A DNA stretch of 64,000 nucleotides. It comes from Oscillospiraceae bacterium (lineage in GTDB: Bacteria > Bacillota > Clostridia > Oscillospirales > Ruminococcaceae). The notes below the pieces were generated by a model. The model ran no database searches and was not told the origin of the DNA. It worked only from the letters and a program-made list of their open reading frames with translations. How positions within the stretch are numbered: position 1 is the stretch's first letter; each line of letters starts with the position of its first letter. Shown here piece by piece: positions 3,443-49,062 of this stretch. Location of the stretch: positions 8,665 through 72,664 of the forward strand of contig JBJFFR010000183.1 in the NCBI GenBank assembly GCA_051891935.1. The letters are read 5' to 3'. Position numbers and translations under genes: made by a program.

Positions 3443-3468
3443 GGCGGATAGATCTATCCGCCTTTTTT
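3443..3468 (+). terminator. Terminator after mreB
   Basis: ggcggata-gatc-tatccgcc stem followed by TTTTTT. Confidence 0.7.
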
Positions 3469-3494
3469 CGGAATACTCTTATTTTATGGCATAA

Positions 3495-3698
3495 GGGAAC
3501 CTCTAAAAACCTCCTTCTCGGCAAATTTTCTATGACTTATATCATCTGCTGCGTTATCAAAGTAAACGCTGTATAGATTGAATAAATGAAGCGTTTACTT
3601 ACCTTGTAATACATCAAGTATTACTGCGGTTTGATGTCTTGCAGCTGATATAGGTCATATACGAAAATTTGCTCGAGTCCCGGTTTTTAGAGAACCCC
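3495..3698 (+). repeat. Structured palindromic repeat (about 210 bp, MITE-like), copy 1
   Basis: Ends GGGAACCTCTAAAAACC ... GGTTTTTAGAGAACCCC. Homologous copies lie at 36407-36618 (reverse) and 48841-49062. Long internal arms are complementary. It ends 17 nt before the mreC start. Confidence 0.85.
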
Positions 3699-3715
3699 AT
3701 AAGGGAGATGATAAT

Positions 3716-7378: not shown

Positions 7379-7572
7379 TTAAGGAATCGCTGATTAAATC
7401 GCGCCTACGGCTTGGCACGCATCTTGCGCCCGAATATCGGGTTGCATATATTTCCGTCATATTGCACCAAAACTCCTTGACATACGACAGTATGCCTGCG
7501 TCGTTTTGATACAATCTGACGAAAAACCTGACTGCGCAATCTGCGCACCAGATTTAATCAGCGCTTCCTTAA
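7379..7572. repeat. 194-bp element with 22-bp terminal inverted repeats TTAAGGAA(T/G)CGCTGATTAAATC
   Basis: Left end ttaaggaatcgctgattaaatc (7379-7400); right end gatttaatcagcgcttccttaa (7551-7572). The core AAGGAAACGCTGAT recurs at 149, 938, 19510 (reverse), 36516, 48908, 54952 and 55006. Confidence 0.6.
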
Positions 7573-9134: not shown

Positions 9135-9377
9135 TGTAAAGGCTATGATAAAGAGAGTAGCGGACATTTTCTCTTCCAAAGAGAGGGCGGACGGTGAAAG
9201 CGCCCGAAGAGCTTGTGCGTGAAGGACACTTTTGAGCCGCTGTATGTAAAAGTCTGACTAAAATACAGCCGTTTCCTGCGTTAAAGGGAGCAAAAGTTCG
9301 GAGATTATCCGATAAAATAGGGTGGCACCACGATCTTACAAGTCGTCCCTTGTTCACAGACAGGGACGGCTTTTATT
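9135..9377 (+). promoter_or_regulatory. T-box riboswitch leader
   Basis: Stem I elements (AGAGAG, GGTGAAAG), conserved T-box sequence AAATAGGGTGGCACCACG (9315-9332) and terminator cgtccct/agggacg plus T-run (9343-9377), directly upstream of an aaRS gene. Confidence 0.85.
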
Positions 9378-36375: not shown

Positions 36376-36406
36376 AAAAGTTCTCCTTTACGGTCAGATT
36401 ATAAAA

Positions 36407-36618
36407 GGGGTTCTCTAAAAACCGAGACTAAGCAATACTTCGTATTGCTCGCAAATTTTCGTCAGTGACTTTGCACAGCTTCAAGGCAACAAACCGCAGT
36501 AAATACTAAAGAAACGCTGATAGATCAGCTTATTCTTGATGTATTGCAAGGTTTGTTAACGCAGAAGATGGGCAAAGTCATAGAAAATTTGCCGAGAAGG
36601 AGGTTTTTAGAGGTTCCC
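36407..36618 (-). repeat. Structured palindromic repeat, copy 2
   Basis: The reverse complement aligns end to end with 3495-3698 and 48841-49062. It lies 31 nt upstream of the fabV start. Confidence 0.85.
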
Positions 36619-36846
36619 AAAATATAATTATATTGTAGCATTTTTTTACATCAAAATCAAGGCTGTTTTTGTATTTTCGTCGGATAAAGGCTTTATTTTT
36701 TGAAAAAATTGACCCGGTTCGAATTTTATTGTAATTTGTTGTGAATTTACACAAAAAACACTTGAAAATATGCTTTGAATATGGTATAATATTGTAAATT
36801 ATGTTTGAAGACGGCGAAAGCTGATATTTATAAAAGGAGACCGCTT

Positions 36847-48840: not shown

Positions 48841-49062
48841 GGGAACCTCTAAAAACCTCCTTCACGGCAAATCCCCTATGAATTTTGTCATCTGCTGCGA
48901 TATCAAAGTAAACGCTGATTAGATTGAATAAATGAAGCGTTTACTTACCTTGAAATACATCAAGTATTCACTGCGGTTTGATGCCTTGCAGCTGACAAAA
49001 TTCATAACGAGGCTTTGCGAGCAATACGAAGTATTGCTTTGTCTCGGTTTTTAGAGAACCCC
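48841..49062 (+). repeat. Structured palindromic repeat, copy 3
   Basis: GGGAACCTCTAAAAACC...GGTTTTTAGAGAACCCC. Fills the gap between the sortase stop (49063) and the spoIID-like start (48817). Confidence 0.85.

Follow-up and report, generated by a model that had tools for sequence, protein, structure and literature searches.

The window, by which we mean the whole stretch of 64,000 nucleotides of Oscillospiraceae DNA analyzed here, contains three copies of a palindromic element of slightly more than 200 bp, each of which lies directly upstream of a start codon. Does this element serve the genes that it precedes, or is it mobile DNA that has come to rest beside them? An earlier note on this DNA had listed several roles side by side, namely, an RNA processing or stability element, an attenuator, or a MITE with a strong preference for certain insertion sites. 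Our results indicate that the element is very probably a non-autonomous MITE of the IS5 family, IS5 group, which in the genomes sampled is confined to one genus of gut Ruminococcus-like Oscillospiraceae. The MITE, together with its insertion-site preference, is the part of that proposal that stands, on the evidence of terminal inverted repeats, target duplications, an empty site, IS5-type ends, and a crowding of copies at gene ends. A leader, attenuator, or processing element is very unlikely as a property of the family, given copies between convergent genes, mixed orientations, and absent orthologues.

The three copies and their immediate borders are as follows.

3495..3698, + strand: putative MITE copy 1, 204 bp (164-bp core and module A), with the terminator-like hairpin of mreB on one side and the RBS of mreC on the other
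3491..3494, unstranded: target-site duplication ATAA of copy 1, left
3699..3702, unstranded: target-site duplication ATAA of copy 1, right
36407..36618, - strand: putative MITE copy 2, 212 bp (core and modules B and C), 31 nt upstream of fabV
36619-36622 and 36403-36406: flanks of copy 2, TTTT/TTTT on the element strand
48841..49062, + strand: putative MITE copy 3, 222 bp (core and modules A and C), occupying the whole gap from the stop codon of the sortase gene to the start of the SpoIID-like gene

These coordinates agree with those that had been proposed, as do the common ends: GGGAACCTCTAAAAACC opens and GGTTTTTAGAGAACCCC closes all three copies. The neighboring genes had also been named correctly (mreC, fabV, and a spoIID-like gene), and the distances to their start codons are 17 nt for MreC (PF04085), 31 nt for the FabV-type enoyl reductase (PF12241), and 23 nt for the SpoIID-like protein (PF08486). 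At copy 1, the order along the locus is MreB, a terminator-like hairpin, the element, and MreC.

The ends are terminal inverted repeats of 17 to 20 nt, with GGGAACCTCTAAAAACC and GGTTTTTAGAGAACCCC complementary at 14 of 17 positions and near-invariant in more than 170 copies. Each copy forms a single long hairpin (z about -10 to -12), as had been claimed. Copy 1 folds as RNA at -83.4 kcal/mol (z -11.7), its reverse strand at -80.8 (z -9.8), and its DNA at -48.3 (z -11.6). The segments of the main stem had been described as different in sequence between copies and self-complementary within each; this is the case at 13 of 13 positions in copy 3, at 12 of 13 plus one G.T in copy 1, and at 11 of 13 in copy 2. 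A smaller feature concerns the tips (e.g., 3495-3503 and 3690-3698), where GAACC occurs on the same strand at both ends (GGGAACCTC ... GAGAACCCC), so that a short direct repeat is embedded within the inverted repeat. The tip mismatch is non-random and is kept in every copy and species seen.

The census was carried out in the host draft genome (2.87 Mb, 187 contigs, 43.7% G+C), which holds 33 complete copies and about 25 ends cut by contig breaks. Five other species of the genus contributed 60 further copies, which with the 33 complete ones make up a set of 93. A perfect 4-bp target duplication borders 75 of the 93 copies across the six species, and in no copy does the match extend to 5 or 6 bp. 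Within the host genome alone, nearly all complete copies are bordered by a perfect 4-bp direct repeat; in the window, copy 3 has the flanks TTAC/TTAT, a match at 3 of 4 positions. The commonest duplications among the 93 copies are ATAA (19), TAAA (13), TTAT (11), and TTAA (5), and the position-wise consensus, T/T/A/A, corresponds to a palindromic A/T-rich target. An independent set of copies from public contigs has a perfect duplication in 50 of 80 cases, with the same spectrum. About 25 contigs start or end inside the element (e.g., C10, C27, C37, C47, C56, C63, C86, C91, C110, C141, and C173).

For the mreC copy, to which the empty-site comparison is confined, the state before insertion can be read in relatives. 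Relative G018 lacks the element between mreB and mreC: its flanks there, 96 to 98% identical to those of the host, abut with a single ATAA, and the site reads GGCATAAGGGAG, within ...TTATGGCATAAGGGAGATG..., where the host genome has ATAA-element-ATAA. The same site is empty by sequence in G002, G007, and G013, and match coordinates indicate an empty site in G008, G014, and G015. Between species, only 1 orthologous insertion was found among the 93 copies compared. Copies run to dozens per genome, at sites that are nearly all species-specific. Taken together, the terminal inverted repeats, the duplication of fixed length, and the precise empty site identify the element as a MITE. At 164 to 250 bp, it is too short for a transposase gene.

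DNA searches detected the element in 13 of the 18 other species of the genus and in none of 22 genomes that belong to the same family or order but to other genera. In public records, its hosts are labeled Ruminococcus sp. or Oscillospiraceae MAGs and come from human and ruminant guts. Plasmid and phage collections gave no real match to the element, and in the literature we found no description of this element family. GGGAACCTCT is the end sequence of 161- to 164-bp hairpin elements of Ruminococcus-like bacteria. There are also internally deleted derivatives of 73 bp, at L019 (G018:C41:13089-13161) and L020 (G007:C28:10434-10506), which retain both ends and about 20 nt of each arm and are still bordered by 4-bp repeats (the AAAC/CAAA region and ATAA).

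The origin of the ends was traced by an exact-match scan with the terminal 20-mer GGGAACCTCTAAAAACCTCC. Most matches are copies in the genus; others lie in Acidovorax, Extensimonas, Accumulibacter, and other MAGs. In three of these loci (L117, L183, and L184, from Acidovorax and other MAGs), an inverted pair of GGGAACCTCTAAAAACCTCC bounds elements of 1286 to 1299 bp. Their ORF of 385 to 424 aa matches NF033581, "IS5 family transposase" (E 1e-78), as well as the Pfam families DUF772 (PF05598) and DDE_Tnp_1 (PF01609), and plasmid-borne relatives are annotated as IS5 family transposases. The full-length elements carry 4-bp duplications, CTTT and GATA, in L183 and L184; the insertion sequence of L117, one of three Acidovorax-type copies, is without a clean duplication. 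The MITE and the full-length elements overlap in the outer 20 nt only, and their interiors are unrelated. Since its 20-nt ends are common to IS5-type elements with 4-bp duplications, the element is best classified as an IS5-group MITE. A DDE transposase acting in trans would bind both ends and then excise or copy the element, which would be joined into a 4-bp staggered cut at A/T-rich tetranucleotides.

Ends of the GGGAACCTCTAAAAACC type also bound unrelated small elements, at L137 1338-1466 (129 bp, in a Bacteroidaceae MAG) and at L166 3949-4039 (91 bp, in a Planctomycetaceae MAG). This type of end has therefore spawned MITEs independently in several phyla.

No parent was seen within the genus itself. 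In the host genome, a search with a relaxed end motif and for solitary ends gave decayed or nested copies only and no transposase, and the solitary ends in five relatives were all mutated, deleted (73-bp), or ordinary copies. None of 30 DDE_Tnp_1 (PF01609) loci across the genus has the end motif of the element. The 19 genomes of the genus contain no insertion sequence with the ends of the element and no close homologue of the end-matching transposase, an absence that is weakly supported, since most of these genomes are fragmented MAGs and assemblies of that kind frequently miss insertion sequences. The sole IS5_4-type transposase of the genus, found by protein search in 5 of the 19 genomes, is 28% identical to the end-matching one; its element has the ends GGAAACGCTGAATAAA, which share 9 of 17 positions with those of the MITE, and a TTAA duplication. 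Among 108 public loci screened for pairs of terminal inverted repeats 0.6 to 3 kb apart, only insertion sequences of the proteobacterial type qualified. One candidate for a full-length insertion sequence, L203, was rejected, as it consists of two separate small elements around a transporter gene. The mobilizing enzyme may be unassembled in the MAGs or carried on something not binned, or a resident transposase may be cross-acting.

The size classes of the element can be understood from a modular build. The core is 164 bp, and three optional side hairpins, module A (40 bp), module B (29 bp), and module C (18 bp), would produce the classes by occurring in all combinations. All eight module combinations are found in the host genome, with lengths of 164, 182, 193, 204, 211/212, 222, 232, and 250 bp, and one backbone subfamily is found with differing module sets. 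The modules of the three copies in the window, and a copy of a second family that is related to them, are the following.

3561..3600, + strand: module A of copy 1, an optional 40-bp side hairpin whose arms resemble the second-family end motif AAACGCTGAT
48907..48946, + strand: module A of copy 3
36508..36536, - strand: module B of copy 2, a 29-bp apical hairpin with two inverted end cores, AAGCTGAT..ATCAGCGTTTC
36431..36450, - strand: module C of copy 2, a 20-nt motif, GAGCAATACGAAGTATTGCT, that adds about 18 bp of net extra length
49019..49038, + strand: module C of copy 3
7379..7572, unstranded: copy of a second IS5-type MITE, 194 bp, with ends GGAATCGCTGATTAAAT and a TTAA duplication

The earlier note had placed a AAACGCTGAT motif in the central loop of the element. 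This placement is wrong: the motif sits in module A in copies 1 and 3 and in module B in copy 2, and these are add-ons and not part of the core. Modules A and B are inverted copies of the end core AAACGCTGAT of the second IS5-type family. This 11-nt end core, with one mismatch allowed, occurs 267 times in the host genome. The autonomous 1.2-kb parent of the second family is present in G003, G015, and G017; at L021 (G003:C32), it spans about 1315-2534, with ends GGAAACGCTGAATAAA and a TTAA duplication, and it encodes a 354-aa transposase of the IS5 group. Elsewhere in the host genome, outside the window, one copy of our element (C176:21902-22200) has two full-length members of the second family inserted in tandem in its interior, which is direct evidence of nesting between the two MITE families. 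Modules A and B look like remnants of nested insertions of the second family.

Other modules vary between species. Module C covaries, with GCAATAC/GTATTGC in the host genome versus ATAATAC/GTATTAT in G007 and G013. The latter two genomes carry a fourth, apical module, TCGGAATRTATTCCG, together with the covarying version of module C, GAATAATACGAAGTATTATT; copies of 197 bp with this apical module are found at L093, L095, L100, L101, L105, and L107.

The most unusual property of the element is the covariation in its hairpin, which was assessed mainly in 45 distinct 164-bp cores from six species (RNAalifold consensus, 52 pairs). Covariation within copies, which had been proposed from the three copies in the window, is real and significant: 98.0% of the cells are paired, and 20 of the 52 pairs have changed on both sides (183 cells). 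Shuffled alignments have a mean of 89.1% of cells paired, with 0 of 500 reaching the observed value, and slid controls have 28 to 46%. In 87 distinct cores, 26 of 48 pairs have double changes seen in at least 2 sequences, and in a divergent copy (L079), most of three helices are replaced with pairing kept. Other parts are constant in every subfamily, namely, the outer 28 nt, the tip asymmetry of AAC opposite AAC, the TCCTT/GTCCC internal loop, the bulges, a T.G pair (61-104), and the apical GTAATAC/GTATTAC hairpin. The whole element would accordingly be pictured as a long imperfect hairpin in which the helices covary between subfamilies and the termini, internal loops, and bulges stay fixed.

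The distribution of mutations suggests when this compensation arises. Shared variants occur in 0 of 36 terminal columns, versus 38 to 41% of stem and loop columns. Private mutations amount to 0.38 per stem column versus 0.30 per loop column, so that stems are not depleted of them. The members of an orthologous trio (G000_C157, L108, and L104) differ by single uncompensated changes. Variable cells include 8 G.T and 33 A.C, with one invariant T.G, and double changes are often A-T/T-A or C-G/G-C flips. The absence of terminal variants, the private mutations in stems, the uncompensated changes in the trio, the lack of a strand signature, and the equal folding of both strands together indicate that compensation marks propagating lineages. 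Judged from these alignments, the covariation separates propagating subfamilies, and old copies decay in place without compensation. These patterns argue against a host function that is preserved locus by locus. The self-complementarity would be either selected or mechanically maintained in the transposing lineages, and any choice between these two is one that we infer. The fold may be needed for, or may aid, transposition or the tolerance of new insertions.

A neutral cause of the covariation is unlikely but deserves consideration. Template switching or arm-to-arm conversion could copy changes across a quasi-palindrome, and quasi-palindrome correction is an established mutation mechanism in bacteria. 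This process competes only with the proposed explanation of the covariation and leaves the identification as a MITE untouched. The double changes include many transversion flips, A-T to T-A at 25-144, 31-137, and 64-102 and C-G to G-C at 43-122, and these, with the near lack of wobble intermediates, fit copying better than stepwise compensation at the RNA level. That both strands fold equally well is also in its favor. However, unconstrained copying should erase the AAC/AAC tips, the TCCTT/GTCCC loop, the bulges, and the T61.G104 pair, all of which persist in each subfamily and species. Private mutations in stems are common, and the uncompensated single changes in old orthologous copies imply that correction in place is inefficient.

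A different reading, which we consider quite unlikely, is that the long hairpin is itself the working part, either as a single strand or cruciform whose folding an IS5-type transposase requires in order to mobilize a short element or as a self-contained RNA fold. A functional folded RNA or single-stranded DNA would likewise combine conserved internal loops with covarying helices, and plain MITE biology does not require this combination. If the hairpin were a self-contained RNA fold, insertions inside operons would be harmless or useful, and the element would serve as an insulator, processing site, or 3' stabilizer. The crowding of copies at stop codons and upstream of ribosome-binding sites would then reflect function and not mere survival.

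This raises the question of how the MITE copies are placed relative to genes. Gene calls came from a crude ORF-based prediction (2,675 genes, 85% coding), so that distances to start codons carry some error. None of the 33 complete copies falls within a gene call, and two touch the end of an ORF; only 21.5% of the weighted preferred target sites are intergenic. As a null model, we distributed insertions over the favored tetranucleotides, weighted by their use in the other species. Among copies with a stop-side neighbor, 58% lie within 10 nt of the stop, versus 11% expected (reached in 0 of 2000 simulations), and among those with a start-side neighbor, 48% lie 17 to 45 nt before the start, versus 20% expected (P=0.001). 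Both enrichments show that a positional bias exists and that it is directed toward gene ends generally. The preference for start codons suspected from the three window copies holds genome-wide, yet the bias is strongest just after stops. The earlier note had held that copies with neither positional bias nor compensatory changes would be simple recent ones and that a match to a known family would also count against its proposal; both the bias and the compensatory changes are present, so the copies are not of that simple kind, and Rfam has no matching family. At the gathering threshold, the Rfam covariance models gave no match to the element, nor did they at E<=1 for four loci that hold copies.

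The simplest reading of the crowding is a choice of A/T-rich targets combined with the loss of insertions that harm genes, ribosome-binding sites, or promoters. The copies that survive are intergenic and crowded against gene ends. Many of them lie on or directly behind a TAA stop within the duplicated target, so that the gene keeps its stop; in seven cases in the position table, TAA lies inside the duplicated tetranucleotide. Others lie 17 to 45 nt upstream of a start codon, at a distance that barely spares the ribosome-binding site. A promoter consensus scan of the element found weak 9/12 hybrids only, and the sole terminator-like hairpin lies outside the element; we give these results no weight as evidence.

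The start-side copies speak for the view that the element is a cis-acting RNA of the host, that is, a 5' leader, a processing or stability element, or an attenuator that is selected for the sake of the downstream gene and was spread by duplication. The three window copies lie 17 to 31 nt before start codons, almost half of the start-side copies fall in the enriched interval, and the fold is strong and covarying. Several copies lie in operon spacers of 23 to 46 nt, must be transcribed with their operons, and could affect their own mRNAs, a co-transcription that we argue from position. Co-transcribed MITEs that alter mRNA stability have precedents in ERIC and Correia elements (PMC3184786). Nevertheless, this view is very improbable. 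Of the 31 copies with two neighbors, 20 lie between co-directional, 6 between convergent, and 5 between divergent genes; near the 6 convergent cases there is no start codon, and enrichment peaks immediately downstream of stops. Relative to co-directional genes, 13 copies have the same and 7 the opposite orientation, and by our own tally the ratio is 3:3 in the six spacers of 23 to 46 nt that we took as operon-internal. Both strands fold equally well, and the rarity of G.U among variable cells (8, versus 33 A.C) and the many flips leave no wobble signature of a single transcribed strand. No other species examined at that site has the mreC copy, not even the relative with 96 to 98% identity, and the single orthologous insertion among 93, stems not depleted of private mutations, and the lack of an Rfam match also stand against a conserved host RNA.

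A REP/REPIN- or IS200/IS605-type palindrome mobilized in single-stranded form by a tyrosine HUH transposase (RAYT or TnpA) would share the long hairpin, conserved loops, covarying stems, intergenic location, and high copy number, but it is hardly credible here, as REP/REPIN and IS200/IS605 elements have no target duplication and no terminal inverted repeats of such a kind, whereas in our element 4-bp duplications are the rule and the termini match a DDE-type IS5 element. Integron attC, REP/RAYT, and IS200/605 origins were rejected on the duplications and on the dispersed layout in two orientations. A Tn3-type origin, which the GGGG tip had suggested, was rejected because the duplication is 4 bp and not 5.

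The closest known systems to the proposed MITE are the IS5 group (E. coli IS5 type; NF033581, "transpos_IS5_4") and the MITEs derived from it. Like IS5-group elements, it has an identical terminal 20 nt, a 4-bp duplication, termini that start with GG, and a palindromic A/T-rich target. Unlike the full-length elements, which were found in Proteobacteria and other MAGs and not in the genus, it is without a transposase gene. The E. coli IS5 target is YTAR (CTAG/CTAA), from which the TTAA/ATAA-like target of the MITE differs. BOX elements of Streptococcus pneumoniae are likewise modular, with optional sub-hairpin units in varied combinations, but they are not known to have clear terminal inverted repeats or target duplications, and in the MITE the modules have been added to a canonical core. 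Whole-element hairpins with terminal inverted repeats are also formed by the Correia/nemis elements of Neisseria and the ERIC elements of enterobacteria, which often lie near genes and have length variants due to internal indels; they are co-transcribed, as the operon-internal copies of the MITE would be. Correia and ERIC elements duplicate TA, and effects of RNase III/RNase E have been shown experimentally for them; the duplication of the MITE is 4 bp. Within Firmicutes, the functionally most similar repeat is bcr1 of the Bacillus cereus group, a MITE-like element of about 155 bp with 5-bp direct repeats and non-conserved locations, in which compensatory base-pair changes keep a long stem and which has been shown to be transcribed (PMC3184786). 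The two are alike, by description only, in their intergenic location, similar size, direct repeats, and compensatory changes, and they differ in the length of the repeats, 5 bp versus 4 bp in the MITE.

The family thus appears as a real, recently mobile IS5-type MITE, newly described as a family and of a known kind, and nothing in it departs from known MITE biology. That propagating lineages maintain the hairpin is supported by better evidence than usual. With well over a hundred distinct copies in many subfamilies, it offers a natural data set on why MITEs keep whole-element hairpins. It is a main cause of assembly fragmentation in the host draft and breaks assemblies of these gut MAGs, and it can be mistaken for a riboswitch-like leader. 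Its insertions mark very recent genome change between near-identical gut strains, and those in the mreBCD operon, upstream of fabV, and in cell-wall gene regions are testable cases of mobile DNA in essential transcription units.

Two further structures in the window lie outside the element. Between mreB and copy 1, at 3443-3462, there is a G+C-rich hairpin, GGCGGATAGATCTATCCGCC, with an 8-bp stem followed by T6 on the + strand. Its form suggests a terminator or attenuator within the mreBC unit; the terminator scan scored it on the minus strand only. At 9136-9353 (+ strand) lies a T-box leader (Rfam RF00230, 117.7 bits), which is the sole match in the window at the gathering threshold.
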